A stretch of 64,000 nucleotides of DNA from Candidatus Omnitrophota bacterium. Lineage in GTDB: Bacteria > Omnitrophota > Gorgyraeia > Zapsychrales > Zapsychraceae. This document shows, piece by piece, positions 1 to 19,338 of the stretch. Location of the stretch: positions 989 to 64,988 of the forward strand of contig JADFYE010000012.1 in the NCBI GenBank assembly GCA_015233195.1, in the 5' to 3' direction. A program made the translations under genes and the position numbers. Under the pieces are notes generated by a model. It saw only the letters and a list, made by a program, of their open reading frames with translations, ran no database searches and was not told where the DNA came from. Each line of letters opens with the position of its first letter. The first letter of the stretch is position 1.

Positions 1-756
1 TTAGCTCAAAAAACTGCGCTTGAACAAACCAAAGCCCAATTACCGGCTTTGGACCGCGAGCTTGCCTATACTCGTCATCAATTAGCAGTTTTAGTCGGTA
101 AATTTCCAAATGAAGAAAGCACTTTACCTGAATTTGATCTATCCGAATTAACGCTTCCGCAAGATTTACCGGTAACTTTACCGTCTGAATTAGTGCGTAA
201 ACGTCCTGATATAAGAATGTCGGAAGAATTACTGCATGCGGCTTGCGCAGAGATAGGCGTGGCAACTGCTAATATGTACCCGCAATTTATTTTAAACAGC
301 GGGTTTGGCCCGGAATCAAATACGATCAAAGAATTATTTAATGGCAACAATATTATTTGGAATATCGGAGCTAATATTGTCCAGCCGATATTTCGCGGCG
401 GCGAATTAAAAGCTAAAAAACGCGCGGCATTGGCAGCTTTTGATCAAGCAGCTGCTGAATACCGTCAAACTGTTTTATACGCGTTTCAAAATGTAGCAGA
501 TGTTCTGCGCGCATTGGAAACTGATGCTGCTACCTTTGAAGCTCAAATCGCCGCATTTAATACCGCGGAAGAATATTTTAAATTAGCAAAAGAACAATTT
601 AATAACGGAGCAGTCAGCATTTTTATTTTATTAGACGCTGAGCGGCAATTTAATTTAACTCGCATCGGCGTAGTACAAGCTCAAGCCGCACGTTTTGCAG
701 ATACAGCAGCATTGTTTCAGGCGTTAGGTGGCGGCTGGTGGAACAACGCCAATTAA
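1..756 (+). CDS. Outer-membrane efflux factor (NodT/OprM-type OEP family), C-terminal part; 5' end lies outside the window
   Basis: Frame 1 is open from base 1 (LAQKTALEQTKAQLPALDRELAYTRHQLAVLVGK...), so the TTG at 49 is not the real start. It has a typical OEP C-terminal repeat ending in FQALGGGWW. Adaptor and RND pump genes follow directly. Confidence 0.85.
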   Translation, partial: LAQKTALEQTKAQLPALDRELAYTRHQLAVLVGKFPNEESTLPEFDLSELTLPQDLPVTLPSELVRKRPDIRMSEELLHAACAEIGVATANMYPQFILNSGFGPESNTIKELFNGNNIIWNIGANIVQPIFRGGELKAKKRAALAAFDQAAAEYRQTVLYAFQNVADVLRALETDAATFEAQIAAFNTAEEYFKLAKEQFNNGAVSIFILLDAERQFNLTRIGVVQAQAARFADTAALFQALGGGWWNNAN

Positions 757-829
757 AAATTGGCGAGAAAATAGATAATAGAGAATAGAAAATAGACAAA
801 AACGATTGGTGCAAAAAAGAGGATAGATT

Positions 830-1960
830 ATGTTTAAGAAAATGTTAATTATGTTAGTATTTGTGGGCGTGATTTTTGGAGGGATATTTGGTTATCATGC
901 TTTTATGGGAAACATAATGAAAAAATATATGTCTACCATGAAACAGCCTCCAACTGTAGTATCTGCTATGAAAGCAGAATTTCATGAGTGGCAGCCTTTA
1001 ATAAAATCTGTAGGCAGTTTTAAATCAGTGCATGGAGTTGATGTATCTACCGAAATCCCAGGTATAGTTACTCAAATTAATTTTAAATCAGGTGATGAAG
1101 TAAATGAGGGACAAGTATTGCTACAATTGAATGCAGATACTGATATAGCGCAACTGCATGCTTTAGAAGCTGCTGCAGATTTAGCACAGACTACTTATGA
1201 CCGGGATAAAAAACAATTAGAAGTTCAGGCAATCAGTCAGGCAGTTGTAGACGGTGATGCCGCAGAATTAAAAAGCAAAAAAGCTTTGGTAGCACAGCAA
1301 AATGCTTTAATCGAAAAAAAGACAATAAAAGCTCCATTTGCTGGACGGCTAGGAATCAGTACTATAAATTTGGGCAAATATATAAATCCAGGTGAGTCTA
1401 TAGTCAATTTGCAAAATTTAGATTCAATATATGTTAATTTTTATTTACCCCAGCAAGATCTGGCAAAAATTTTTATAAATCAGAAAATAAACGTTACTAC
1501 TGATTCATATCCTGGACGGACGTTTACCGGATCGATCACTGCGATTAACCCTAAAGTTGAGACTGATTCCCGTAATTTCTTGATTGAAGCTTTAATCGAT
1601 AATCAGAAACACGAACTTTTACCAGGCATGTACGCAATAATAGAAGTAGACGCTGGTACAAAAGAAAAATATTTAACTTTGCCCCAAACGTCTGTGGCAT
1701 TTAACCCTTTTGGTGAAACTGTATTTGTGGTAAGTGAAACTGGCAAAGACGAAAAAGGTAACCCAGTCTTAACTGCTAAACAAATCTTTGTTTTAGTAGG
1801 CGAAACCCGCGGCGATCAAGTCGCGATTTTAAGTGGAATTAAAGAAGGTGACTTAATAGTTACATCTGGACAACAAAAATTACGAAATGGCAGTACGGTT
1901 GTTATAGATAATAAAGTTATTCCGACTAATGATCCAAATCCAAAACCAATTGATCAATAG
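830..1960 (+). CDS. RND efflux periplasmic adaptor (membrane fusion protein, AcrA/MexA-like)
   Basis: N-terminal membrane anchor, a coiled-coil hairpin (LHALEAAADLAQTTYDRDKKQLE) and an IKAPFAGRLG barrel motif. RBS AAGAGGA lies upstream, and the gene sits between the OMF and RND genes. Confidence 0.9.
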   Translation: MFKKMLIMLVFVGVIFGGIFGYHAFMGNIMKKYMSTMKQPPTVVSAMKAEFHEWQPLIKSVGSFKSVHGVDVSTEIPGIVTQINFKSGDEVNEGQVLLQLNADTDIAQLHALEAAADLAQTTYDRDKKQLEVQAISQAVVDGDAAELKSKKALVAQQNALIEKKTIKAPFAGRLGISTINLGKYINPGESIVNLQNLDSIYVNFYLPQQDLAKIFINQKINVTTDSYPGRTFTGSITAINPKVETDSRNFLIEALIDNQKHELLPGMYAIIEVDAGTKEKYLTLPQTSVAFNPFGETVFVVSETGKDEKGNPVLTAKQIFVLVGETRGDQVAILSGIKEGDLIVTSGQQKLRNGSTVVIDNKVIPTNDPNPKPIDQ

Positions 1961-1969
1961 GATTATGAT

Positions 1970-4900
1970 ATGAATTTTACTGATATATTTATTAAGCGAC
2001 CAGTTCTGGCAACTGTAGTTAGTTTGTTAATATTGGTTTTAGGCATACGTTCACTTAGTCTTTTAGGCGTGCGGCAATATCCTGAAACTCAAAATGCTCT
2101 TGTAACAGTTACTACAGTATATACAGGCGCTGATCCTTCAGTAGTCGCCGGATTTATTACAACGCCACTTGAAAATTCAATAGCGCAAGCTGACGGAATT
2201 GATTATCTGGTATCGTCCAGTACTTCAAATGTCAGTCTTATAAAAGCATTTCTCCGCCTAAATTATGATTCGAATAAAGCTTTAACTGAAATAAATACAA
2301 AAGTAAATGCGGTTATTAATCAATTACCAAAAGAAGCGCAGCAGCCTACTATTACAGTCGCTATTGGTGAAGATATAGATTCAATGTATCTTGGATTTTA
2401 TAGCACCGCTATCCCAACAAATAAAATTTCAGATTATCTAATCCGTGTAGTCCAGCCTAAATTACAAGCTGTTCCAGGAGTACAGACTGCTGAAATATTA
2501 GGTAAACGTCAATTTGCAATGCGGGCATGGCTCGACCCTGTAAAAATGGCAAGCCGTCAAATAACTGCTACAGATGTTAGCAATGCTTTAGCTGCTAATG
2601 ATTTTATTTCAGCATTAGGGCAGACCAAAGGGTCTATGGTTCAAGTTGATCTTACTGCAGCGACCGGCATGCATACTGTAGATGAATTCCGCAATTTAGT
2701 TATTAAGACTGTAAACGGCGCAATAGTACGTTTAGGCGATGTCGCAACCGTTTCTTTGGGTGCTGAAGATTATGATACTTCAGTTTCATTCGATGGGGTT
2801 AGCGCGGTATATGTCGGAATAAAAGTTGTACCCAGCGCTAATTTATTGACTGTTATTGGTAATGTAAGAAAAGTAGTTCCTTCAATACAATCTCAATTAC
2901 CTGCAGGATTAGAATGTAAGCTCGTATATGATGCCACAAAATATATAAACAGCTCTATAAACGAAGTTATTAAAACTCTAGTCGAATCATTGCTCATAGT
3001 TACTTTGGTGATTTTTTTATTTTTAGGATCAATCCGTTCCGTAATTATTCCAGTCATTGCCATGCCTTTATCTTTGATAGGCGCGTTTTTTATAATGTTG
3101 ATGCTGGGCTACACAATTAATTTGTTAACACTTTTGGCATTAGTATTAGCTATCGGTCTGGTTGTAGATGATGCTATTATTGTGGTCGAGAACGTGCATC
3201 GGCATATAGAAGAAGGTATGGCTCCGATGGCTGCAGCATTAAAAGGCGCGCAAGAATTGTCTGGTCCAATTATTGCAATATCAATTGTTTTAATCGCAGT
3301 TTATATCCCTATTGGTTTTATGGGCGGGCTAACTGGTGCTTTGTTTACTGAGTTCGCTTATACTCTGGCTGGTGCAGTCGCAATATCTGCGATAATAGCT
3401 TTAACTCTGTCGCCTATGATGTGTTCACGTTTTTTAAAACACCATAATGGAAATAATCAGCATTCATTTATGGAAACAATGGACCAGCAATTCGCTAAAT
3501 TGCAAAACGTGTATGTAAAAATTTTACATAAAGCATTGAATAGTGTACCAGTTATTGTGGTGTTCGCACTTATTGTTATGGTCAGTATTTTCTTTCTATT
3601 TAAAACTTCAAAGAGCGAACTTGCGCCGACTGAAGATCAGGGAATCGTCTTATCTTTGTATACTGGAGCACCGAACGCGTCGATTGAACAAACTAAACTT
3701 TATTCTAAACAAGCTTATAGTATCTTTTCTAAAATCCCTGAAACTGACCATGTATTTCAATTCGATGGAGTGTTTGGAGTTAATTCAGGCATAGCAGGCG
3801 TAGTTTTCAAACCTTGGGACCAACGTAAACGTCATGCGTCAGTTATTCAAGAAGAAATGCAAATGCTTTTAGCAGGCATGGCAGGAGTTAATGCTGTAGC
3901 TTTCACTCCAGCGCCTTTACCCGGAGGAGGCGAAGGTCTGCCAGTTCAATTTGTTATAGGAACTACTAATTCTTTTGAAGAACTGAATAAAATTTCTCAA
4001 AATATTGTTCAAAAAGCTTATGCCAGCGGCAAATTCATGTATGTTGATTCTGATCTTAAAATCGATAAACCGCAAACTGAAGTAATAATCGATCGTGACA
4101 AAACCGCGCAATTAGGTTTGACCATGCGCGATGTAGGACAAGCTTTGGGCTCAATGTTAGGCGGCGGTTACATAAATTATTTTAGTCTTGCTGGACGGTC
4201 CTATAAAGTAATTCCGCAGATTATGCAAAGTGAACGTTTAAACGCTCAGCAATTACGCGATTATTATATTAATACTGCAAGCGGTGCTGCTATTCCCTTA
4301 TCAACTATAGCGACTTTAAAAACTTCAGTTGTTCCAGAAACTTTAAATCATTTTCAACAATTGAATTCAGCGACCATATCCGCAGTTCCTGGTTCAAGTG
4401 TAACTTTAGGTCAAGCTCTGGAAGCAATGAAAAGCATAGCTAAAGACGCTATGCCTGCAGGTTATAGTGTCGACTATTCTGGACAATCCAGACAATTCAT
4501 GCAGGAATCAAACGCGCTTGCTATAACTTTTGTTTTCGCTTTAATAATTATTTTTTTAGCTTTAGCTGCGCAATTTGAAAGTTTTCGCGACCCATTAATT
4601 ATTTTAATGAGCGTGCCTTTGTCAATATGCGGAGCTATGATATTTATTAGCTTAGGCGTAGGCGGGGCAAGCTTGAATATTTTTACTCAAGTAGGGTTAA
4701 TAACTCTAATTGGTTTGATTAGCAAACATGGTATCTTGATTGTGCAATTTGCCAATGATCTTCAAAAAGAAGGAAAGAGTAAACGTGAAGCAGTTGAAAT
4801 GGCTTGCGGCATACGTTTAAGACCAATTCTTATGACTACAGCTGCTATGGTGGTAGGTGTTGTGCCTTTGGTTATTGCTACGGGTGCAGGCGCTGCCGGA

Positions 4901-5014
4901 CGCTATAACATGGGATTAGTTATTATGACTGGAATTGCGATTGGAACTTTGTTTACTTTGTTTGTTGTGCCAGGAATGTACATGTTATTAGCAGCTCAGC
5001 ATAAAAAAGTATAG
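1970..5014 (+). CDS. RND efflux permease (AcrB/MexB family, 1014 aa)
   Basis: N-terminus MNFTDIFIKRPVLATV, the VVDDAIIVVENV motif, a 12-TM layout with two large periplasmic loops, and a length typical of HAE1 pumps. Confidence 0.95.
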   Translation: MNFTDIFIKRPVLATVVSLLILVLGIRSLSLLGVRQYPETQNALVTVTTVYTGADPSVVAGFITTPLENSIAQADGIDYLVSSSTSNVSLIKAFLRLNYDSNKALTEINTKVNAVINQLPKEAQQPTITVAIGEDIDSMYLGFYSTAIPTNKISDYLIRVVQPKLQAVPGVQTAEILGKRQFAMRAWLDPVKMASRQITATDVSNALAANDFISALGQTKGSMVQVDLTAATGMHTVDEFRNLVIKTVNGAIVRLGDVATVSLGAEDYDTSVSFDGVSAVYVGIKVVPSANLLTVIGNVRKVVPSIQSQLPAGLECKLVYDATKYINSSINEVIKTLVESLLIVTLVIFLFLGSIRSVIIPVIAMPLSLIGAFFIMLMLGYTINLLTLLALVLAIGLVVDDAIIVVENVHRHIEEGMAPMAAALKGAQELSGPIIAISIVLIAVYIPIGFMGGLTGALFTEFAYTLAGAVAISAIIALTLSPMMCSRFLKHHNGNNQHSFMETMDQQFAKLQNVYVKILHKALNSVPVIVVFALIVMVSIFFLFKTSKSELAPTEDQGIVLSLYTGAPNASIEQTKLYSKQAYSIFSKIPETDHVFQFDGVFGVNSGIAGVVFKPWDQRKRHASVIQEEMQMLLAGMAGVNAVAFTPAPLPGGGEGLPVQFVIGTTNSFEELNKISQNIVQKAYASGKFMYVDSDLKIDKPQTEVIIDRDKTAQLGLTMRDVGQALGSMLGGGYINYFSLAGRSYKVIPQIMQSERLNAQQLRDYYINTASGAAIPLSTIATLKTSVVPETLNHFQQLNSATISAVPGSSVTLGQALEAMKSIAKDAMPAGYSVDYSGQSRQFMQESNALAITFVFALIIIFLALAAQFESFRDPLIILMSVPLSICGAMIFISLGVGGASLNIFTQVGLITLIGLISKHGILIVQFANDLQKEGKSKREAVEMACGIRLRPILMTTAAMVVGVVPLVIATGAGAAGRYNMGLVIMTGIAIGTLFTLFVVPGMYMLLAAQHKKV

Positions 5015-5085
5015 GTTTGCCTCAACCCCTGTTTTTTAACCTTTTATAAGTTATACTTATATTAGAGTGAAAATAAGGGGGGCGC

Positions 5086-7872
5086 ATGCCTAAGAATGTA
5101 GCAATAAAAAAAATTATTTCTTTTATAATTACGATATGTTTTAGTATATCGTCAATTATTATTTACCCTTCAAGATCTACAGCGCAAAATGTTTTACCGT
5201 CTGCTGGAAATATTTTATCTTTATCAACTCCAACTATGCCGGTAGTTTTAAAAGGCATCCGTGCTACTGCAGAAAATCCTTTTCAATTAGATTTTCTAGT
5301 TGACGCTGGTGACTTAAATTCAAGTTCTGATGAAACCATTAAAATAAACGCTCAAAAATCGATTAAATACTTTTTAGCTGCTTTAACCATTCCAGATAAA
5401 GACCAGTGGGTTAATTTATCTCCATATGAAAAAGACCGTATTGTTCCAGATAATTTTGGTAATACTGAAATGGGACGAGATCTTTTAGCTCAAGATTTTG
5501 TTCTAAAAAAACTAACCGCATCATTAATGTATCCGGAAACAGAATTAGGACGAGAATTTTGGAAAAAAATTTATGATCAAGCATATGAAAAGTTTGGTAC
5601 TACAGATATTCCAACTGATACGTTTAATAAGGTATGGATAGTGCCTAGCAAAGCAGTTGTTTATGAGGGATCAGAAGGCGCGTTCATTACTGAAGAAAAA
5701 TTAGATGTGATGCTAGAACAAGACTATATTGCACAGCAACATGGTCGAAGTAATACGCTTGCTGAACCACAAAACAATACTAAACAACCTACTCCAGAAA
5801 CTCAAACACTTATCAAAACTATAATTCTTCCTGCTTTGCTTAAAGAAGTAAACGAAGGCAAACATTTTGAACCCTTGCGGCAGATTTATCATGCCATGAT
5901 ATTAGCCACCTGGTTTAAACGTAATTTAAAAGAAAGCCTATTAGGACAATCGTATGTAGAAAAAAATAAAATTATAGGCATTGATATTGCGGATAAGAAT
6001 GAACGCCAAAAAATTTATGCCCAATATATCGAAGTATTCAAAAAAGGCATGTATGACTATATAAAAGATGAATATGATCCTGTAATTCAAAAAATCATTC
6101 CCCGTAAATATTTTTCAGGCGGATTTAGCCCAGATCAATTAAATGCGATTTTTACACAAAAACGTGAAGAACCGTTCGCGTTCGCAGGAAAAAAACGTCT
6201 TCGCGCAATTCATCTAAATTTAACAACAACGAATAATTCAGAATTAAAACCCGGCTCAGATAATGCGTTACTAGCTTCATCTATTACTGAAAAAGTACAA
6301 AACGTGATCAATGCTTTAGCACAACCCCAAAAACAACCACAAAAATTTTTAACAATAAACGGACAACAAATTATTCCTATTCCAAGAATACAATCTTGGC
6401 AACCAAATGAAATATATGATATAGGAAATGGTCTTGTAGTACGTGTTAGATCAGCACAATTTGATTCCTTAATGAGTTCTAAACATGGGATTAATACTAA
6501 TTATCAAAAAGCTGCAGATATTGCGGTAAGCCCTTCTTTTTTTAATTCAGGAGAAATTCGAACCGAAACAGGAAAAATCTACCCCTATATTATTACAGAA
6601 AAAATAAATGGACAAAATTTAAATACTTATTATTTTAAACATTTAGCAATGGCAACCCCTTCTAATGCTGAGCAAGATAAAGCATGGCTAAAAGAAAAAT
6701 TAAAAATATTAATAAAAAGAATGATCAAAAATAAATTGTTATTAAGTGATTTTAGACCGGATCAGTTTATGCTTGGGTATTCAGAACTAAATGAAAAGCA
6801 GCAAAAAAATATTTGGTTGATTGACCCGGATCTGTTAGAAGAGTTTCCAGAATTATCTTATCAACAGCTCATAGAGCTATATAAATTAAAAATTTATGAA
6901 GATGATTCTTCAGTATGGAATCAACTCTATGAATATAGAAAAATGTTTTTAGAGATTTTGAATGAGATTGAAAAAGAATCCGATACTGCGATGTTAAATT
7001 CAATTAATGGCGGGGATAAAATAGCGCTTGAAGATATTGATGGGACAAAAATGGAGGATGGATTTTTATTGCTAAAAAACGGAACAAAATTACCATTAAG
7101 CCAATATGAAGGCATGAGTAATTATATATTCGTAAATTCATATTTTGTTGTAAGGGTAATTAAGTCTAACGATAGTAAAATGTATGAAAATTATGAAGAA
7201 GTGGCTAAATATGGCATATGTCCACAAATTCTTCGAAAAGGAAAAATCTTTGGAAAAAATGGTGAAGAATTAAAATATATTGCTGTAGAATTAATTGATG
7301 GAAATAATTTAGCCGAGATGAAAAATTCGTTAACTGATTTACAAATAAAAGATTTACGTAAAATACTTCGCGAATTAATTAAACGAAAAATAATAATCAG
7401 AGATTTCTGGCCTGAACAATTTATGGTTGGGAAAAACATAGGAAGAACAAAAAGTATAAAAGAAGTTTGGCTAATTGATCCTGAAAAATTTAAAATTTAT
7501 GAAAATTTATCATCACAAGAAATTATAATAAAGATGATTAAGCAAATAGAAAATGATGGAATGATGTGGGGAAATTCACCGTACCGTAAAGTATTTCTAA
7601 AAGAATTAAATACTTTTTTAGAAAGTGCAGCCGCGGAAAATGACCGAGCAATTTTAACTAAATCCCAAACTAATCGCGATGATCTAGGTGGTATTGATAT
7701 GGGTTCTGATCGTCTAAATTTAGAAAAACAAGGTCCCGGTAGCGCAGCTAAAACGTCAGGAAAATTTTCACAAAAAATCGATTATAATTTCCAAGGTTTA
7801 AGCATTTTAAATATTACTATCGCCTCAAAAGTAGATATCTCCATGTTTTTAGGTTTACCTGCATCAAATTAG
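5086..7872 (+). CDS. Secreted 928-aa protein of unknown function with two tandem degenerate protein-kinase-like repeats
   Basis: Strong RBS AAGGGGGG and an N-terminal signal/anchor (IISFIITICFSISSIIIYPSRSTAQ). An internal duplication of about 215 aa carries LLLSDFRPDQFML...IWLIDPD in one copy and IIIRDFWPEQFMV...VWLIDPE in the other. Confidence 0.8.
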   Translation: MPKNVAIKKIISFIITICFSISSIIIYPSRSTAQNVLPSAGNILSLSTPTMPVVLKGIRATAENPFQLDFLVDAGDLNSSSDETIKINAQKSIKYFLAALTIPDKDQWVNLSPYEKDRIVPDNFGNTEMGRDLLAQDFVLKKLTASLMYPETELGREFWKKIYDQAYEKFGTTDIPTDTFNKVWIVPSKAVVYEGSEGAFITEEKLDVMLEQDYIAQQHGRSNTLAEPQNNTKQPTPETQTLIKTIILPALLKEVNEGKHFEPLRQIYHAMILATWFKRNLKESLLGQSYVEKNKIIGIDIADKNERQKIYAQYIEVFKKGMYDYIKDEYDPVIQKIIPRKYFSGGFSPDQLNAIFTQKREEPFAFAGKKRLRAIHLNLTTTNNSELKPGSDNALLASSITEKVQNVINALAQPQKQPQKFLTINGQQIIPIPRIQSWQPNEIYDIGNGLVVRVRSAQFDSLMSSKHGINTNYQKAADIAVSPSFFNSGEIRTETGKIYPYIITEKINGQNLNTYYFKHLAMATPSNAEQDKAWLKEKLKILIKRMIKNKLLLSDFRPDQFMLGYSELNEKQQKNIWLIDPDLLEEFPELSYQQLIELYKLKIYEDDSSVWNQLYEYRKMFLEILNEIEKESDTAMLNSINGGDKIALEDIDGTKMEDGFLLLKNGTKLPLSQYEGMSNYIFVNSYFVVRVIKSNDSKMYENYEEVAKYGICPQILRKGKIFGKNGEELKYIAVELIDGNNLAEMKNSLTDLQIKDLRKILRELIKRKIIIRDFWPEQFMVGKNIGRTKSIKEVWLIDPEKFKIYENLSSQEIIIKMIKQIENDGMMWGNSPYRKVFLKELNTFLESAAAENDRAILTKSQTNRDDLGGIDMGSDRLNLEKQGPGSAAKTSGKFSQKIDYNFQGLSILNITIASKVDISMFLGLPASN

Positions 7873-7945
7873 ACCAAGAAAATTGTTTTAAATTTTGACA
7901 CTTCACGCTAAAATAGACATCAATAAGATTATAGGGGGAGATGTA

Positions 7946-10078
7946 ATGGCAGAGATTTTAACTGAAAAGACTACAAAACAAATTTCTTCAGGTCGCAGTT
8001 TCTCATTAGGCGTTACTTTAATGGATGACGGCGCCAATTTCGCGATTTATTCCAAACACGCTAAAGAAATTTTTCTTCTACTTTTCGATACTAATAAAAA
8101 ACAGCCGGTTGATATTATTAAACTTGAACGAGTTGATAATAATATCTGGGTAATATTTGTACATGGAATTAAACCCGGGCAGTTATATGGATATAAAGTA
8201 CGGGGAGACTATAATCCCAAACTTGGATTACGTTTTAATGAAAACAAATTATTAATTGACCCGTATGCCAAAGCTTTTCATGGCGATTTTAAAAATATTG
8301 ATGATTTATTACTCGGGTATGATGCGAAATCCACTGAGCAAGACCTTTCTTTTGATCCCAGAGATAATACTGCAATAGCTCCCCGCTCAGTCATCATTGA
8401 TGATTCTTTCGATTGGCAGGGAGATAAAAAACCGAATGTTCCAATGGAAAAACTGATCATTTATGAAGTTCATGTTAAAGGATTCACCGCACACTCGTCT
8501 TCAAAAGTAAAAAACCCCGGCACATATCTTGGTTTTATCGAGAAAATACCTCATTTAAAAGAGCTGGGTATAAACGCAGTTGAATTGTTGCCGATTAATC
8601 AATTTTATAAACGAGATGGTCTGGTTAAACTTAATCTGACTGATTACTGGGGCTACAATTCTGTAGGATTTTTTGCTCCGGAAAATTCATACAGCACATT
8701 AAAAAATATAGGCTGCCAGGTTACAGAATTTAAAACTATGGTAAAGGCTTTACATAAAGCCGGCATTGAGGTTATTTTAGATGTAGTATTTAATCATACT
8801 GGCGAAGGGGATGAACTTGGTCCAACTTTAAATTTTAGGGGGATAGATAATCCATCGTATTATGCCTTAAAAGGTACTGGTGACGCACCATACCGTTTAT
8901 ACGTTAATGACGCTGGCTGCGGTAATATGTTCAACGTTGAAAATCCTGCAAGTTTACGTTTGGTATTAGACGCACTCCGATATTGGACCGATACTATGCA
9001 CATTGACGGCTTTCGTTTTGATTTAGCGACTATATTACCCCGCATGGACGGTCGCTACTCAAAAGAAGCTGCATTTTTTGAAGCCATAGCTCACGACCCA
9101 GTATTAAAAAATGTAAAACTTATCGCAGAACCCTGGGACTTAACTACGTATCAAATTGGAAATTTTCCTTTAAACTGGTCAGAATGGAACGGCAAATTTC
9201 GGGATACTGCCCGTCAATTCATAAAAGGTGATTGGGGGCAAGCCCGTGAATTAGCTTATCGCTTGACTGGGTCTGAAGATTTATACGGAGATGATGGACG
9301 CACGCCTTACGACAGTATAAATTTTATAACTTGCCACGACGGCTTTACATTGAATGATCTTTATTCTTACAATATAAAACATAATGAAGCCAATGGTGAA
9401 AAAAATCGGGACGGTACCAATGATAATTTTTCCTGGAACTGCGGTGTAGAAGGCGAAACCAAAGACGAAGCTATTCTAAATTTTCGTAAGCAAATGGTAA
9501 AAAATGCATTTGCTTGTCTTTTGATTCCTTTAGGTACTCCAATGATTTTAGGAGGAGACGAATTTCTTCGTACCCAAAAAGGCAACAATAATGCATATTG
9601 CCAAGACAATGAACTAACCTGGTTCAACTGGGAATACGCGAAAAAAAATAAAGATATAACTGAATTCGTAAAAAAACTTATCGCTTTCAGAAAACGTCAT
9701 CCGATATTACAAAAGCGGAAATTTACACCTGGGCAGGGTTTGAATTTCGATAATGTAAAAGATCTGGTTTGGTTTAATGAAAATTTGGGCAAAGTAAACT
9801 GGGATGATGCCAGCATAAAAACATTTTGCTGTCATTTAGACGGAACCAGAGACCCAACTGAAAAAGACCCATGCCATTTGTATTTTATTTTAAATGCTGA
9901 CAATAATGCGCATCACGTTAAATTACCGCAATATCAAGGTATTACCTGGTATCGTGCTTTAGATACTTCAATTAACAGCCGGGATGACATATCTGATAAA
10001 GGAAAAGAACAAAAATTAGATCCTGCAGATTTTTATTTCATAAATCCTCGATGCGTAGTTGTATTAATCGGACAATAA
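7946..10078 (+). CDS. glgX: Glycogen debranching enzyme (GH13, GlgX-type)
   Basis: GH13 motifs DVVFNHT, GFRFDLA, EPWD and FITCHDGFTLND. The start was moved to the ATG at 7946 (MAEILTEK), which follows RBS GGGGGAG. The track start at 7895 is a TTG with no RBS. Confidence 0.9.
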   Translation: MAEILTEKTTKQISSGRSFSLGVTLMDDGANFAIYSKHAKEIFLLLFDTNKKQPVDIIKLERVDNNIWVIFVHGIKPGQLYGYKVRGDYNPKLGLRFNENKLLIDPYAKAFHGDFKNIDDLLLGYDAKSTEQDLSFDPRDNTAIAPRSVIIDDSFDWQGDKKPNVPMEKLIIYEVHVKGFTAHSSSKVKNPGTYLGFIEKIPHLKELGINAVELLPINQFYKRDGLVKLNLTDYWGYNSVGFFAPENSYSTLKNIGCQVTEFKTMVKALHKAGIEVILDVVFNHTGEGDELGPTLNFRGIDNPSYYALKGTGDAPYRLYVNDAGCGNMFNVENPASLRLVLDALRYWTDTMHIDGFRFDLATILPRMDGRYSKEAAFFEAIAHDPVLKNVKLIAEPWDLTTYQIGNFPLNWSEWNGKFRDTARQFIKGDWGQARELAYRLTGSEDLYGDDGRTPYDSINFITCHDGFTLNDLYSYNIKHNEANGEKNRDGTNDNFSWNCGVEGETKDEAILNFRKQMVKNAFACLLIPLGTPMILGGDEFLRTQKGNNNAYCQDNELTWFNWEYAKKNKDITEFVKKLIAFRKRHPILQKRKFTPGQGLNFDNVKDLVWFNENLGKVNWDDASIKTFCCHLDGTRDPTEKDPCHLYFILNADNNAHHVKLPQYQGITWYRALDTSINSRDDISDKGKEQKLDPADFYFINPRCVVVLIGQ

Positions 10079-14543: not shown

Positions 14544-15191
14544 ATGAATTTTTCAGATCGATTAAAACGTTGTTTTAAACTACGGTTTGCGATTGTATAT
14601 CCATTTGCTATTTACGCGATATTTTTTACTCATCCAACCAATACTTCAATGTTACGAGGTATAGGAATAGTATGTTTGGGTTTATTGATCCGTCTCTGGT
14701 CTAATGGTTACGCGATTAAACTTGAAAAATTAACTACTTCCGGACCGTACGCTTATGTCCGCCACCCATTATATCTAGGTACATCTTTAGTACTTATTGG
14801 ATTTATAGTGATGTTAAAAATGTATATAGTCGGGATTATTTTTTGGGCGGTAGTAGTAGCTGTGTATTTTAAAACCATAAAACAAGAAGAAAAAATGTTA
14901 GAAGACAAATTTAAAGACGTATATTTAGACTATAAAAAATGTGTTCCTGCATTCATTCCAACTTTTAAACCTTATACAAAAGGCGAAAAATGGGCTTTTG
15001 CTATGGAGAGGTTTATTAGAAGTAAAGAATATAAGTCGACAATTTGGGTACTTGTACTTACTATATTCATATATTTAAAAAACGCGCTTTTTGTTCAAAA
15101 ACTTCAAATGAATACAGAATTATGGATCTATGCCACAATAGCATTTATTTTAATTGTGGCTGATATTACAGGGGAAATTATTAAAAAATAA
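14544..15191 (+). CDS. Membrane methyltransferase of the isoprenylcysteine carboxyl / phospholipid methyltransferase family
   Basis: Polytopic membrane protein with the family signature SGPYAYVRHPLYLG. Its start abuts the RND stop (TAAATG), which suggests translational coupling. Confidence 0.75.
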   Translation: MNFSDRLKRCFKLRFAIVYPFAIYAIFFTHPTNTSMLRGIGIVCLGLLIRLWSNGYAIKLEKLTTSGPYAYVRHPLYLGTSLVLIGFIVMLKMYIVGIIFWAVVVAVYFKTIKQEEKMLEDKFKDVYLDYKKCVPAFIPTFKPYTKGEKWAFAMERFIRSKEYKSTIWVLVLTIFIYLKNALFVQKLQMNTELWIYATIAFILIVADITGEIIKK

Positions 15192-15260
15192 TATTTATCT
15201 TTCACTTTTGCAATGCTTTAGGTAAAATAAGCACTTATAAAATCATTGATCCAAATATAA

Positions 15261-15737
15261 ATGAAACTACAACTTATAATTTTAAATATCGCACTAAGTG
15301 CGAGCATCTTTGGATGTTCATTTATTTCTGCTCCAAAAGCGGAATGGGAATTTAGTAAACTTGATTTTGATACAGTTTCAGAGCAATCAGTTTCAAATAT
15401 GTGCATGCTATATAAAAACTTTGAACCTGAAGTCTTTAGCAAAGCTATATCCCGTGATTTTAACCCGGATAAACAACTATTTTTGGATGCAGTCGCTCTT
15501 ATAGTAGAGAAAGAGAAAGTCGAACAAATCAAATTCGTTAAAGATTATGTTGCGGCAAAAGTAAACGTTATGTCAGTAACTATAAAATGGGAAAAAACCG
15601 TTACAATTAAGAATTCAGGCGCGGTATTTACTATTAAAGGTAAATCAGATTTAATCTTCAGAAGATATAACGGTGACTGGCTATTAAATTCAATTAATGG
15701 TGACAATTTATTTTTATCGACGGCAAATAAAATTTAA
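15261..15737 (+). CDS. Hypothetical lipoprotein (158 aa)
   Basis: Lipobox LSASIFG-C after a hydrophobic leader. The overlapping antisense ORF 15218..15532 has no comparable signal. Confidence 0.5.
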   Translation: MKLQLIILNIALSASIFGCSFISAPKAEWEFSKLDFDTVSEQSVSNMCMLYKNFEPEVFSKAISRDFNPDKQLFLDAVALIVEKEKVEQIKFVKDYVAAKVNVMSVTIKWEKTVTIKNSGAVFTIKGKSDLIFRRYNGDWLLNSINGDNLFLSTANKI

Positions 15738-15769
15738 TAATACACTAAAAAATTTTCTTTAAGAAGATA

Positions 15770-15797
15770 TTGACAACTGTAAGCTTTGAATTACCAT
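15770..15797 (+). promoter_or_regulatory. Candidate sigma70-type promoter for the 119-aa gene / micro-ORF / riboswitch / uppP unit
   Basis: TTGACA at 15770-15775, a 16-nt spacer, then TACCAT at 15792-15797. It lies about 40 nt upstream of a strong RBS (AAAGGAGGA). Confidence 0.4.
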
Positions 15798-15833
15798 ATG
15801 AGGAAGAAATTCTAAAAGAAAGGAGGAATAAAC

Positions 15834-16193
15834 ATGAAAAAATCATTATTAGTATTAGCTTTATTGGCTTTAGTTGCAGCTCCTGTGTTCGCACAAGAAG
15901 CAGCTAAAACCGAAGCAGCAGCACCTGTAGCAGCAGTAGCAGCAGCTCCAGTTGTTGAAGCTGTTGTAGTTGGTGATGTTGTATCAGTTGATGCCGCAAC
16001 TTCAACTATTGTTGTAAAAGTTGTAGTTGATGCAGCAGCAAACACAACTGCAGACAAAACCTTCACCATTCCAGCAGATGCAAAATTAACAAGCGGAGAA
16101 GCACAAATTACGCTTGCTGATGTAGCAGCTGGCGCTAAAGTTTCAGTTACTTTAGCAAATGATGTAGTTAAATCTGTAGCTGTAAACAAATAA
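15834..16193 (+). CDS. Small secreted Ala/Val-rich protein (119 aa), unknown function
   Basis: RBS AAAGGAGGA and a signal peptide (MKKSLLVLALLALVAAPVFA-QE). A low-complexity A/V/P segment is followed by a beta-rich C-terminal domain. Confidence 0.6.
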   Translation: MKKSLLVLALLALVAAPVFAQEAAKTEAAAPVAAVAAAPVVEAVVVGDVVSVDAATSTIVVKVVVDAAANTTADKTFTIPADAKLTSGEAQITLADVAAGAKVSVTLANDVVKSVAVNK

Positions 16194-16212
16194 TTCTCTT
16201 AAAGGAGAAATT

Positions 16213-16302
16213 ATGACAGTCAAAGCAAAAAAACCGGCTAAAAAAGCTAGTTCTTGCAAGACAAAAAAAGCAGCAACGAAGTCATGCTGTTGCTGTAAGT
16301 AG
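16213..16302 (+). CDS. Micro-ORF encoding a 29-aa Lys-rich, Cys-rich peptide (MTVKAKKPAKKASSCKTKKAATKSCCCCK)
   Basis: Translated by hand because it is below the ORF-track cutoff. RBS AAAGGAG lies 6 nt upstream of the ATG. The stop codon abuts the riboswitch. Confidence 0.4.
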   Translation: MTVKAKKPAKKASSCKTKKAATKSCCCCK

Positions 16303-16305
16303 TCC

Positions 16306-16466
16306 TATTAGGGCCCCGAAGGATAAAGTTTAAAGCCAAATTTCTGACCTTCCAGAAAGCGGGAGATACCAGCTGGAGGGGTGAATCTCAAAGAACTTGA
16401 GAAGGATAACTGCCATCCTAACCCATCAACTAATCTCGTAGGCTAGGCAGTATTTTTATTTTTTAA
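16306..16466 (+). promoter_or_regulatory. c-di-AMP riboswitch (ydaO-yuaA motif) with a 3' U-tract expression platform
   Basis: Blocks match remembered ydaO consensus/crystal sequences. They are CCCGAAGGATAAAG (16315-28), AGCGGGAGATACCA (16358-71; compare GCGGGGGACCCA), GGGGTGAATC (16378-87; compare GGGGUGAAUC), GAAGGATAAC (16401-10; compare GUAGGGAUAC) and CCCATCAACTAATCTCGTAGGC (16422-43; compare CCCGACAGCUAACCUCGUAAGC). The duplicated GAAGGATAA fits the pseudo-two-fold fold. Stem CTGCC/GGCAG (16410-14/16446-50) is followed by TATTTTTATTTTTT. Confidence 0.6.
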
Positions 16467-16475
16467 GGGGGAGAT

Positions 16476-17252
16476 GTGGATTATTTTAATGCTATCATTT
16501 TAGGTGTGGTTGAAGGTATAACTGAGTTTTTGCCTATATCTTCAACCGGGCATCTGATCTTAACTTCTAAGATCTTACATTTAACAGAAACTGAATTTTT
16601 AAAAAGTTTCGAAATTGCTATTCAATTAGGAGCCATCCTTTCTGTTGTAGTACTTTATTGGCGCATGTTATTAGTCAATAAGAACATACTCAAACAACTA
16701 ACTGTAGCTTTTATTCCTACTGCAGTAATCGGTTTTGGATTATATAAGATTGTGAAAAAATTCTTTTTAGGTAACAGCGATATTGTTATCTGGGCGTTAT
16801 TTTTAGGCGGCATTTTTCTAGTAATATTTGAACTTGTGCATAAAGAAAATAACGCCAAAGATATCGAAAAATTAGAAGATATTAACTTAAAACAATCTTT
16901 TATAATCGGCATATTCCAATCTTTTGCCATAATACCTGGAGTTTCCAGGGCTGCTGCTACTATAATCGGCGGTCTAATATTAGGACTAAAGAGACAAACT
17001 ATAGTTGAATTTTCATTTTTACTGGCTGTACCAACAATGGGAGCAGCAGTAGCTTATGATTTAATAAAAAGTGCGCCAGCATTTTCTTCTGATCAATTTA
17101 TTTTTTTAATTATAGGATTTGTCGTGTCGTTCATTGTTGCCATAGGCGCAATAAAATTTTTGCTAGCATTCATTCAAAAAAATAATTTTGTGGCATTTGG
17201 ATTTTATCGAATTTTATTAGCTATTTTATTTATGTTCTTTATAAAACTGTAG
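16476..17252 (+). CDS. uppP: Undecaprenyl-diphosphatase (BacA/UppP)
   Basis: GTG start after RBS AAGGGGGAG. N-terminal signature ILGVVEGITEFLPISSTGHL and a polytopic protein of 258 aa. Confidence 0.95.
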   Translation: MDYFNAIILGVVEGITEFLPISSTGHLILTSKILHLTETEFLKSFEIAIQLGAILSVVVLYWRMLLVNKNILKQLTVAFIPTAVIGFGLYKIVKKFFLGNSDIVIWALFLGGIFLVIFELVHKENNAKDIEKLEDINLKQSFIIGIFQSFAIIPGVSRAAATIIGGLILGLKRQTIVEFSFLLAVPTMGAAVAYDLIKSAPAFSSDQFIFLIIGFVVSFIVAIGAIKFLLAFIQKNNFVAFGFYRILLAILFMFFIKL

Positions 17253-17318
17253 CAACGATCTTTTTTGTTCTGCTTGCGTTTTAAAGGGTTTCCCAATATA
17301 ATTATATTGTTTTTCCAA

Positions 17319-17348
17319 GGCCCATATAGCCAATGGGTCTATTTTTTT
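17319..17348 (+). terminator. Candidate intrinsic terminator after uppP
   Basis: Hairpin GGCCCAT-atagcca-ATGGGTC (7 bp including one G-U) followed by TATTTTTTT. Confidence 0.5.
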
Positions 17349-17370
17349 AATATACAATTACTAAAAATAT

Positions 17371-19338
17371 ATGTTAAGTTTATTTAGAAGAATAAAACAA
17401 ATTGTTATTGGAAGGTCAAAAGACCCTCAAGACTCAAAAATATTCCATTCTTTATCATTAATGGCATTTTTTGCTTGGGTTGGACTTGGAGCAGACGGAC
17501 TGTCTTCATCATGTTATGGTCCTCAAGAAGCATTTTTTGCGCTTGGACAACATACCCATCTTGCTATATTTGTCGCACTTGCCACTGTATTGACTATTTG
17601 CATTATCAGCGCGAGTTATTGCCAAATCGTTGAACTATTTCCTGCTGGAGGCGGAGGATATCTAGTAGCCAGCAAATTACTTTCGCCAAACTGGGGAATG
17701 ATATCCGGATGCGCGTTGTTGATCGACTATGTTTTGACTATAACTGTTTCAATTGCCAGCGGGGCAGACGCAGTTTTCAGTTTATTACCTCCAGATTTTC
17801 TTCCTTATAAACTTTGGTTCGCGATACTATGTATTTTCTGTTTAACTATCCTTAATATGAGGGGCGTTAAAGAATCAGTTATGTCATTAGTACCAGTATT
17901 CTTACTTTTCGTATTTACGCACGTGTTCATAATAATTTATTTCTTCATTCATCATGCTCCTGAAATGCCGGCTTTAATCCAGGCAACCCATACTGATGTT
18001 TCTGCTTCTGTTTCTCAATTAGGTTGGCTGGGTGTTATATTTTTAGTTTTACGCGCGTACAGCATGGGGGCAGGTACATTTACTGGTCTAGAAGCTGTCA
18101 GTAACGCAGTTGGAGTATTACGCGAACCCCGTGTTAAAACCGCAAAAAAAACCATGCTTTATATGGCGGTATCTTTGTCAGTGATAGTTCTAGGACTTAT
18201 GATTGCCTATATTATTTATGACTTAAAATTTGCAGACGGTAAAACCTTAAATGCAGTCTTATTTGAGACCATAACTGTAGGCTGGGGCAAGGGTGGTTAC
18301 ATTTTTGTTTTTGTAGCTTTAATATCTGAAGCATTATTGCTATTTATAGCAGCACAAACTGGATTTTTAGGCGGACCACGAGTACTGGCTAATATGGCAG
18401 TTGACCGCTGGTTCCCAAATAGATTTTCGATGTTAAGCGACCGCTTAGTAATTCAAAACGGCGTACTTATCATGAGTATCTTTGCCTTAGCGCTGCTTAT
18501 ATTCACACATGGTTCAGTAGCCTTACTAGTAGTTTTTTATTCGATAAACGTATTTATAACATTCGTGCTTTCCCAATTAGGTATGGTGCGTCATTGGTGG
18601 AACAATCGAGAAAAAGTAAAAAATTGGTTTAAAAAAATGATGGTAAACGGCATAGGTTTAGTATTAACTGCGTTTATCCTTGTATCGATGGTAGTATTAA
18701 AATTTAACGACGGCGGCTGGGCAACATTATTGGTGACTGGAACTTTGATAGCTTTTGCCATATACATAAAAAAACATTATTTAAAAACTGCTAAATTATT
18801 GCGAAGATTAAATAATTTGGTAGTGGCTACTGAAAACGCTCCTGTAGAAAAAGATCCTCACACTGTCATACCCTGCGATAATTCAGCAAAAACCGCAGTT
18901 ATTCTGGTCAGTGGATTTAATGGCATGGGACTTCACACCTTATTCGGAATTTTTAGGTTTTTTGGTCACACTTTTAAAAATTATATTTTTGTTCAAGTTG
19001 GAATTATAGATGTGGAAAATTTTAATTCAACTGAAGAAGTTAAGTCAGTAGAAGAAAAAGTAAAACATGATACTGACCGTTATGTATCTTATATTCAAAA
19101 ACAAGGATTTTATTCTGAAGGCATCTGGTCAGTTAGCGTTGATGCTGTAGAAGGAGTCGCGGAATTAGCACCAAAAGTACTTCAGAAATTCCCTAATTCA
19201 GTATTTTTTGGAGGACAATTAATATTTCCAGAAGAAACTTTAATGTCAAGATTTTTACACAACTACACTTCTTTTTCGTTACAGAAAAAATTATACTGGC
19301 AGGGAGTGCCATTTGTTATTTTACCGATCCGGGTGTAA
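17371..19338 (+). CDS. APC-superfamily permease with C-terminal cytoplasmic domain, KimA (YdaO)-like putative K+ transporter
   Basis: Motifs parallel to B. subtilis KimA as I remember it: GADGLSSSCYGPQE, FPAGGGGYLVASK, LLIDYVLTITVSIASGADA and TGLEAVSNAV. It has 12 predicted TM helices plus a soluble tail of about 170 aa. Confidence 0.7.
   Translation: MLSLFRRIKQIVIGRSKDPQDSKIFHSLSLMAFFAWVGLGADGLSSSCYGPQEAFFALGQHTHLAIFVALATVLTICIISASYCQIVELFPAGGGGYLVASKLLSPNWGMISGCALLIDYVLTITVSIASGADAVFSLLPPDFLPYKLWFAILCIFCLTILNMRGVKESVMSLVPVFLLFVFTHVFIIIYFFIHHAPEMPALIQATHTDVSASVSQLGWLGVIFLVLRAYSMGAGTFTGLEAVSNAVGVLREPRVKTAKKTMLYMAVSLSVIVLGLMIAYIIYDLKFADGKTLNAVLFETITVGWGKGGYIFVFVALISEALLLFIAAQTGFLGGPRVLANMAVDRWFPNRFSMLSDRLVIQNGVLIMSIFALALLIFTHGSVALLVVFYSINVFITFVLSQLGMVRHWWNNREKVKNWFKKMMVNGIGLVLTAFILVSMVVLKFNDGGWATLLVTGTLIAFAIYIKKHYLKTAKLLRRLNNLVVATENAPVEKDPHTVIPCDNSAKTAVILVSGFNGMGLHTLFGIFRFFGHTFKNYIFVQVGIIDVENFNSTEEVKSVEEKVKHDTDRYVSYIQKQGFYSEGIWSVSVDAVEGVAELAPKVLQKFPNSVFFGGQLIFPEETLMSRFLHNYTSFSLQKKLYWQGVPFVILPIRV

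Follow-up and report, generated by a model that had tools for sequence, protein, structure and literature searches.

An element that is almost certainly a real riboswitch of the ydaO/kimA class, with c-di-AMP (short for cyclic diadenosine monophosphate) as its predicted ligand, is located at positions 16303–16466 of a 64,000-nucleotide (nt) stretch of DNA from a Candidatus Omnitrophota bacterium (assembly GCA_015233195.1, contig JADFYE010000012.1, positions 989–64,988, forward strand; G+C content 35%), hereafter called the window. It is best read as intercistronic, since it follows two small open reading frames (ORFs) and precedes uppP, which encodes undecaprenyl-diphosphate phosphatase; the gene after uppP encodes a homologue of the K+ transporter KimA. 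It probably works as an OFF switch, and a pseudoknot abutting a U-tract is the candidate for its output element. The identity of the aptamer, its helices, the complementarity of the pseudoknot strands, the identities of the genes, and the synteny in a second genome come from direct analysis. The case rests on two metagenome-assembled genomes (MAGs), those of the window and of Omnitrophota nDJH6bin5 (contig JADFYJ010000001.1). Taken as a whole, with the mechanism included, the statement has, in our estimate, an even chance of being correct.

Identification of the Aptamer

Comparison with Rfam 15 using cmscan revealed a match to RF00379 (c-di-AMP riboswitch, ydaO/yuaA leader) at positions 16324–16459 of the forward strand, which covers the full model (1–134 of 134) with a score of 68.7 bits and an E-value of 7.7e-14. 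The score is about 30 bits higher than the gathering score of 38 bits, and no other Rfam match in the whole window exceeds its gathering score. A permissive scan of positions 15200–17500 revealed no other significant or credible match; in the spacer between uppP and the kimA homologue, neither a second degenerate aptamer nor another RNA family was detected.

A model built from the aptamers of the window and nDJH6bin5 was searched in 83 sources and gave six aptamers: these two and those of a Fundidesulfovibrio, a Methylacidiphilaceae bacterium, an Ignavibacteriae bacterium, and another Omnitrophota bacterium (L007, L046, L067, and L071, respectively). Standard pairs occupy 95.5% of the pair cells of their alignment, and both sides have changed in 19 of the 30 pairs. 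None of 500 shuffles was as good, and slid partners gave 37–51% pairing. The alignment was fitted to the model and is thereby biased towards the structure, while the Rfam score is an independent agreement. The helices (Table 1) are supported by this covariation. The original prediction, made from the letters alone, had placed a ydaO-type riboswitch here; the significant match over the full model and the compensatory changes in homologues bear it out, and the predicted interval encloses the 5′ flank, the aptamer, the pseudoknot, and the U-tract.

The core nucleotides are mostly kept in the window aptamer (GGGGUGAAUC, AACCC, and CUAA). In the region 16425–16433, the aptamers of the window and nDJH6bin5 have CAACUAA in place of the CAGCUAA that is strongly conserved in the family, so that one conserved G is replaced by A. 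Both also have UAACCC where the family has GAACCC or GAGCCC. The aptamer itself is an ordinary, conventional member of a well-known class. A scan of viral contigs for the aptamer core gave no matches.

Pseudoknot and U-Tract

Six nucleotides of the P7 loop, ACUGCC, are complementary to GGCAGU, which begins one nucleotide past P1. The energy of this duplex in the window is −9.7 kcal/mol, equalled by two of 500 shuffled loops. The 5′ strand in nDJH6bin5 is GCUGCC, in which a G-U pair replaces A-U, and the loop–tail duplex there has an energy of −10.0 kcal/mol; the stretch containing the 3′ strand, AGGCTAGGCAGTATTTTT, does not differ between the two genomes. The first loop would consist of a single nucleotide (A16408) spanning the second stem of 6 bp, which is feasible by general pseudoknot stereochemistry. 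The pseudoknot is left out of the Rfam consensus structure; the loop–tail complementarity recurs in nDJH6bin5, in the Fundidesulfovibrio, Methylacidiphilaceae, and Ignavibacteriae aptamers, and in every fetched Firmicute and cyanobacterial example. In the crystallised Thermoanaerobacter tengcongensis RNA (sequence from PMC5393176), the CUCCUUCG:CGAAGGAG pairing has the same topology. The pseudoknot of the T. pseudethanolicus riboswitch pairs nt 83–88 with nt 125–130; its population and stability are raised by c-di-AMP, as shown by single-molecule Förster resonance energy transfer, and it carries the regulatory output by hiding the Shine–Dalgarno (SD) sequence (PMC11963983).

A U-tract, U5-A-U6, starts one nucleotide past the pseudoknot. 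The original prediction took it for the mark of a transcription-terminating OFF switch; the U-tract stands, but no terminator hairpin accompanies it. A consensus terminator scan found none between the aptamer and the U-tract. A separate hairpin was also rejected for want of room, as P1 ends at 16444, the pseudoknot ends at 16451, and the U-tract starts at 16453, which leaves 8 nt from P1 to the U-tract. The sole helices abutting the U-tract are the pseudoknot or an alternative hairpin with an 18-nt loop. In nDJH6bin5, an A followed by U7 stands in this place, and a 20-nt insertion follows ahead of the SD. Despite this downstream insertion, GGCTAGGCAGTA with at least five following T is identical in the two genomes, which speaks for the pseudoknot strand and the U-tract being one functional unit.

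In none of the 14 other aptamers examined does a U-tract abut the pseudoknot. The Bacillus, Priestia, Niallia, Paenibacillus, and Peptoclostridium plasmid examples and the second Omnitrophota aptamer from the covariation set (L071) have a separate hairpin terminator 25–40 nt or more past the pseudoknot, and in the Ignavibacteriae genome the SD is the 3′ strand of the pseudoknot itself.

The 5′ Flank and the Duplicated Nonamer

Across all 64 kb of the window, there are exactly two copies of the nonamer GAAGGATAA, at 16318–16326 and 16401–16409. The second copy comprises the 5′ strand of P7 and two loop bases, whereas the first lies 5′ of P1, outside the aptamer helices, in a region that the family model treats as unpaired. 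The counterparts in nDJH6bin5, GAAGGATAT and GAGGGATAG, differ from each other. Thus, the duplication that had been noticed is present, while its interpretation as two halves of a pseudo-two-fold architecture was rejected, given the position of the first copy and the difference between the copies in nDJH6bin5.

The first copy may instead act as a competitor for the 3′ strand of P7. In predicted folds of transcripts ending at 16420 or 16433, AGGAU 16320–24 is paired to AUCCU 16415–19 and AGU to ACU in the P7 loop, with pair probabilities of 0.5–0.8.

Proposed Mechanism and Alternative Explanations

We propose a transcription unit that would start at the promoter-like site near 15770 and include the genes of a secreted 119-amino acid (aa) protein and a 29-aa peptide, the riboswitch, uppP, and the KimA-family transporter gene. 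The riboswitch would decide whether transcription of the upstream genes continues into uppP and, at least in part, into the kimA homologue. Binding of c-di-AMP would stabilise the aptamer, including the pseudoknot formed by ACUGCC 16409–14 and GGCAGU 16446–51, and this pseudoknot, stacked on P7, would replace the terminator stem, with U5AU6 following one nucleotide later. At high c-di-AMP, transcription would stop ahead of the ribosome-binding site of uppP; uppP would be off, and the kimA homologue probably off as well. Without ligand, the pseudoknot would be less populated, perhaps hindered by the 5′-flank copy of AGGAU competing for the 3′ strand of P7, and the polymerase would read on.

The pseudoknot is proposed as the terminator stem because c-di-AMP promotes the pseudoknot in the related T. 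pseudethanolicus riboswitch and because every c-di-AMP riboswitch tested is an OFF switch (PMC9960051; PMC6488665). We infer that the riboswitch is co-transcribed with the two ORFs ahead of it, that it is an OFF switch, and that the pseudoknot acts as the terminator. Of these, the OFF sign is likely, and action through pseudoknot-dependent termination falls a little short of an even chance. A more specific version is rather doubtful: the pseudoknot would be the terminator stem without a separate platform, and the element would be an intercistronic gate, with the upstream protein and micropeptide always made, uppP and the kimA homologue shut off together at high c-di-AMP, and the response possibly tuned by ribosomes that terminate on the micropeptide ORF.

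Several points weigh against this mechanism. We know of no natural case in which a pseudoknot helix directly serves as the stem of an intrinsic terminator. The aptamer would be completed only with the polymerase already in the U-tract, which makes the decision window unusually short. The arrangement is present in two genomes only, too few for covariation in the platform, and the mechanism is read from sequence. The six pseudoknot pairs are reused by a nested hairpin, ACUGCC-AU-CCUA[18 nt]UAGG-CUA-GGCAGU, with an energy of −9.9 kcal/mol; since the same 6-bp helix can form in this way without the aptamer, termination may be constitutive or even ligand-relieved. The competitor pairing of the 5′ flank is lost or disfavoured once the transcript reaches 16445, and AGGAU:AUCCU alone is conserved in nDJH6bin5. 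An internal promoter may lie upstream of the aptamer, and the terminator-like hairpin in the spacer between uppP and the kimA homologue may uncouple the latter from the riboswitch in the window genome. The RHR[ASTG]A motif of diadenylate cyclases was found in no real ORF within the 64 kb window.

The nested hairpin also allows the opposite sign, which we consider improbable. In such an ON switch, the ligand-free hairpin with the U-tract would terminate transcription, and the ligand would lead to read-through by locking AUCCU in P7, U16439 in P3, and GG in P1. The hairpin lies within the unconstrained minimum free energy (MFE) structure (its energy in nDJH6bin5 is −8.8 kcal/mol), and its upper stem cannot coexist with P7, P3, or P1, a layout of aptamer and terminator that is typical of ON riboswitches such as pbuE. 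Its loop, however, is as long as 18–20 nt, and its basal six base pairs are those of the pseudoknot, which is formed in the bound state and promoted by c-di-AMP (PMC11963983). The substitution U16439C in nDJH6bin5 turns a G-U pair of P3 into G-C and breaks the upper stem of the hairpin; the strengthened P3 is favoured over its competitor, which argues, though not decisively, against an ON switch. Besides, the characterised members are all OFF switches, and induction of a KimA-type K+ importer by c-di-AMP would be contrary to known physiology.

An OFF switch could also act on translation, although we regard this as unlikely. The U-tract would then be a spacer, and the bound state would pair the 5′ flank (CCCC 16314–17 and GAAGGAUAAAG) with the U-tract and the SD (GGGG 16467–70), extending P1 and hiding the ribosome-binding site of uppP. 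The long-range helix appears in the MFE and the aptamer-constrained folds of both genomes, with the CCCC and the purine run pairing with the U-tract and the SD in all MFE folds, and the flank sequence TAGGGCCCCGAAGGATA is unchanged in nDJH6bin5. Its presence in the unconstrained fold, however, means that it is not obviously ligand-dependent, and it is not better than dinucleotide shuffles: the flank duplex was matched by 127 and 62 of 500 shuffles for the window and by 129 and 55 for nDJH6bin5. Translational c-di-AMP riboswitches are known (PMC9960051; PMC11963983), and the Ignavibacteriae element, in which the SD is a pseudoknot strand, would suit such control. In contrast, the first U-tract of nDJH6bin5, conserved directly past the pseudoknot, plays no part in the helix, and translational control alone would leave the kimA homologue unaffected. 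Since the pseudoknot strand of the window precedes the U-tract and the SD lies further downstream, termination seems to fit better than masking of the SD.

Finally, the aptamer might not regulate at all. The U-tract with the pseudoknot or hairpin would then be a constitutive attenuator or terminator of the upstream two-gene unit, and uppP would be expressed by leaky read-through or from an unrecognised promoter. Formation of the helix next to the U-tract need not depend on the rest of the aptamer, the core in this lineage carries the uncommon CAACUAA, and the window holds no detectable cyclase. Against this stand the score of the aptamer, 30 bits past the gathering threshold, and its conservation: the aptamers of the window and nDJH6bin5 are about 93% identical, whereas the neighbouring proteins are 56–84% identical, and the changes within helices keep pairing (in P6, A-U to U-A and an extra G-C; in P3, G-U to G-C; in P7, A-U to G-U). 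Of the alternatives considered, we give this one the least credence, and a regulating OFF switch is retained as the preferred reading.

Genes of the Putative Transcription Unit

The coordinates of the features are given in Table 1.

Table 1. Features of the riboswitch locus in the window
Feature	Position	Strand	Basis or remark
Promoter-like site TTGACA-16 nt-TACCAT, likely start of the unit	15770–15797	+	10 of 12 consensus matches; consensus only
ORF 1, 119 aa, signal peptide, Ala/Val-rich	15834–16193	+	ORF list; strong SD
ORF 2, 29-aa Lys/Cys-rich peptide MTVKAKKPAKKASSCKTKKAATKSCCCCK	16213–16302	+	ORF list, conservation in nDJH6bin5; strong SD AAGGAGAA
5′ flank: hairpin GUCCU/AGGGC, CCCC (16314–17), GAAGGAUAA copy 1 (16318–26); possible competitor or anti-SD strand	16302–16333	+	Conservation in nDJH6bin5
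Aptamer core, from P1 5′ strand to pseudoknot 3′ strand	16334–16451	+	RF00379 alignment and covariation
P1, AGCC/GGCU	16334–37/16441–44	+	cmscan alignment
P2	16341–46/16353–58	+	cmscan alignment
P3, GCGGGA/UCUCGU	16359–64/16434–39	+	cmscan alignment
GGG/CCC	16379–81/16422–24	+	cmscan alignment
P6	16387–91/16397–16401	+	cmscan alignment
P7, AGGAU/AUCCU	16403–07/16415–19	+	cmscan alignment
Pseudoknot 5′ strand ACUGCC, P7 loop	16409–16414	+	Complementary to 16446–51
Pseudoknot 3′ strand GGCAGU, proposed 3′ half of terminator helix	16446–16451	+	Sequence complementarity
U-tract U5-A-U6	16453–16464	+	Sequence
SD region of uppP, AAGGGGGAG	16465–16473	+	Sequence
uppP (BacA), undecaprenyl-diphosphate phosphatase, 258 aa, GTG start	16476–17252	+	PF02673, TIGR00753
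Terminator-like hairpin and U7, uppP–kimA spacer	17318–17348	+	8-bp stem, 4 G-C pairs, 7-nt loop, then ATTTTTTT
KimA (YdaO)-family APC transporter homologue, 655 aa	17371–19338	+	PDB 6S3K, PF13520

The element had been described as following two small ORFs rather than forming a 5′ leader, and this description is supported: no promoter- or terminator-like site was found between the ORFs and the aptamer, and the layout is kept in nDJH6bin5. A consensus scan detected no terminator-like site from the promoter-like site to the aptamer, and no conserved promoter-like hexamers were seen at 16194–16330. The intervening distances are short: ORF 2 follows ORF 1 after 19 nt, and P1 follows ORF 2 after 31 nt. 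The intercistronic position is the best reading, and co-transcription with the upstream ORFs is suggested by the two genomes. The promoter-like site at 15770–97 is the sole good candidate upstream; its counterpart in nDJH6bin5, TTGACA-16 nt-TAACAT, lies in the conserved block AAGAAGATATTGACAAC.

The ORF 1 protein has no Pfam or NCBIfam match and no homologue at E ≤ 0.001 among 5.8 billion proteins; a 73% identical syntenic copy (122 aa, secreted) is present in nDJH6bin5, and the differences are mostly in third positions. ORF 2 has no family match either, and neither ORF has an exact match in the protein collection. In nDJH6bin5, a 27-aa peptide, MPVKAKKPAKKAGTCKTKKASKTCCCK, is encoded in its place (2873–2956), with the SD, the start, and the stop position kept. 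The two ORFs differ by a frame-preserving 6-nt indel and synonymous TGC/TGT changes, and their first 33 nt are identical, while the neighbouring genes differ at many third positions. The preserved SD, start, and stop and the frame-preserving indel suggest that ORF 2 is translated. Its product may be a small peptide associated with metal or membranes, or ORF 2 may be a leader-like ORF coupling translation to riboswitch folding. The ORF is unannotated, and the peptides of the two genomes end in CCCCK or CCCK. The stop codon of ORF 2 lies 12 nt ahead of the conserved CCCC of the riboswitch flank.

The uppP product matches PF02673 over profile positions 1–257 of 257 (E-value of 1.2e-71) and TIGR00753 with 231.1 bits, above the equivalog cut-off of 217.5. 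It shares 100% identity with a protein of an NCBI Omnitrophica MAG; an exact look-up of the window protein gave no record. An in-frame stop at 16464–66 makes the GTG at 16476 the first possible start, and the riboswitch lies 24 nt upstream of the gene. Thus, uppP was correctly named as the first downstream gene, whereas the link between riboswitch and uppP is rare and not general, having been found in two genomes only.

The second gene, which had been missed when uppP was called an unusual target, weakens that claim. The best solved relative of its product is B. subtilis KimA (6S3K), with an E-value of 1.1e-60 and residues 5–480 aligned to 2–464; the cytoplasmic C-terminal domain aligns weakly to KimA. 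KimA (YdaO) is the archetypal target and the gene that named the riboswitch class. The kimA homologue is probably the second regulated gene. The hairpin in the uppP–kimA spacer (−10.9 kcal/mol) ends 22 nt ahead of its start codon, and no such hairpin is present in the A/U-rich spacer of nDJH6bin5 (3927–4000, 74 nt). Since the hairpin with U7 occurs only in the window spacer, the coupling of the kimA homologue may differ between the two genomes: it is probably co-transcribed in nDJH6bin5 and would be either attenuated or separately expressed in the window genome. No recognisable SD precedes the kimA start codon in either genome.

Further upstream, positions 14544–15191 encode a membrane protein of 215 aa that has ICMT/PEMT-type methyltransferase domains; its ORF shares one base with the stop codon of the 1041-aa ORF ahead of it. 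The likeness of this protein to LmtA, the lipid A phosphate methyltransferase of Leptospira, is below threshold (69 bits, where TIGR04571 has a cut-off of 325).

Relatives and Rarity of the Riboswitch–uppP Link

The entire layout of the window is kept in nDJH6bin5 (L001), where the order is lipoprotein, promoter-like site, 122-aa secreted protein, 27-aa peptide, RF00379 (69.1 bits), uppP, KimA homologue (84% identical to the window protein), and a MarC-family gene. It is the only one of the 77 transporter-family genome loci in which uppP lies next to the transporter gene on the same strand. Beyond these two genomes, the next relatives are at most 69% identical for UppP and at most 66% for the transporter.

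RF00379 is found directly upstream of a KimA-family transporter gene in four other genomes: Fundidesulfovibrio (100.9 bits), Ignavibacteriae (88.1 bits), another Omnitrophota bacterium (66.4 bits, with a classical terminator), and Methylacidiphilaceae, where the aptamer was found with the model built from the window and nDJH6bin5. Their transporters are 42–63% identical to the window protein. On the simplest reading, the riboswitch followed by kimA is the recurrent arrangement, and uppP would have come between them in one lineage, in which it is found in the window genome and nDJH6bin5.

The next-closest transporters, from Omnitrophota (about 65% identity; L078–L081, genes at about 170–8980), belong to a conserved ExbB-ExbD-H+PPase-transporter-ATP synthase cluster; such operons contain neither uppP nor the riboswitch. 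The KimA-family gene there starts 3–6 nt past the H+-pyrophosphatase gene, a different regulatory context for the transporter family.

A scan of JGI metagenomes for the 3′ core of the aptamer followed within 80–140 nt by the UppP motif EFLP(I/V)SSxGH gave no matches with its narrow pattern (AACCC.T only). A second metagenome scan for CAGCTAAYYTCG followed within 90–150 nt by the same motif gave one match (L082), which was rejected as a chance match and not a true junction, as it lies at a contig end and has no Rfam match. These narrow patterns show that the riboswitch–uppP link is rare, not that it is absent elsewhere. In the literature covered, which leaves out the original target-gene tables, no paper was found that combines the ydaO or c-di-AMP riboswitch with uppP or undecaprenyl.

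Two plasmids carry further variants of the riboswitch. The Niallia taxi plasmid pMEGANia (L084, NZ_CP102590.1) has two complete aptamers in tandem, at 643–788 and 868–1009 (108.6 and 101.1 bits), about 80 nt apart and each followed by its own terminator-like hairpin. A Peptoclostridium acidaminophilum plasmid (L087) has a c-di-AMP riboswitch at 426–565, equipped with a classical terminator, upstream of ablA (lysine 2,3-aminomutase), in keeping with a target in osmolyte synthesis.

Comparison with Known Systems

The window element resembles the B. subtilis ydaO (kimA) and B. thuringiensis kdpFABC leaders in its RF00379 aptamer with a pseudoknot between the P7 loop and the 3′ tail, in a K+ uptake gene (here of the KimA family) within the controlled unit, and in a U-tract after the element. 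However, those are 5′ leaders and transcriptional OFF switches with a separate canonical terminator hairpin downstream (PMC6488665), whereas the window element follows two ORFs, its U-tract abuts the pseudoknot, and uppP comes first. The Bacillus, Priestia, Paenibacillus, and Peptoclostridium examples, with their separate terminators, share the build of those leaders.

The 6-bp pseudoknot of the P7 loop and the 3′ tail is also shared with the translational OFF riboswitches of T. pseudethanolicus and T. tengcongensis (the crystallised one), in which it is the ligand-promoted output element (PMC11963983). In Thermoanaerobacter, the SD is the 3′ strand of the pseudoknot, while in the window the U-tract comes after GGCAGU, with the SD another 16 nt downstream.

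The S. coelicolor rpfA and C. glutamicum nlpC riboswitches are similar in that they are linked to cell-envelope genes and lack a canonical terminator (PMC9960051). Their targets, however, are peptidoglycan hydrolases, and they are 5′ leaders of Actinobacteria, whereas the predicted target in the window is a lipid-carrier phosphatase. The four other genomes with the same aptamer and transporter families have the riboswitch directly before the transporter gene, without uppP between them.

Significance

The unusual features of the locus are the position after two cistrons, uppP standing first with the archetypal target behind it, and a platform reduced to a pseudoknot and a U-tract; none of these is categorically new. 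It is known that c-di-AMP couples osmotic and K+ homeostasis with cell-wall integrity, and the targets known for its riboswitches comprise transporters and peptidoglycan hydrolases. If the proposed regulation is true, recycling of the undecaprenyl-phosphate carrier would, in Omnitrophota, a phylum still poorly understood, join the c-di-AMP regulon and be co-regulated with a K+ transporter of the KimA type, and there would be a direct link at the RNA level from c-di-AMP to the lipid carrier of the cell wall. The pseudoknot fused to a U-tract would be a minimal natural test case for a ligand-induced pseudoknot triggering intrinsic termination.

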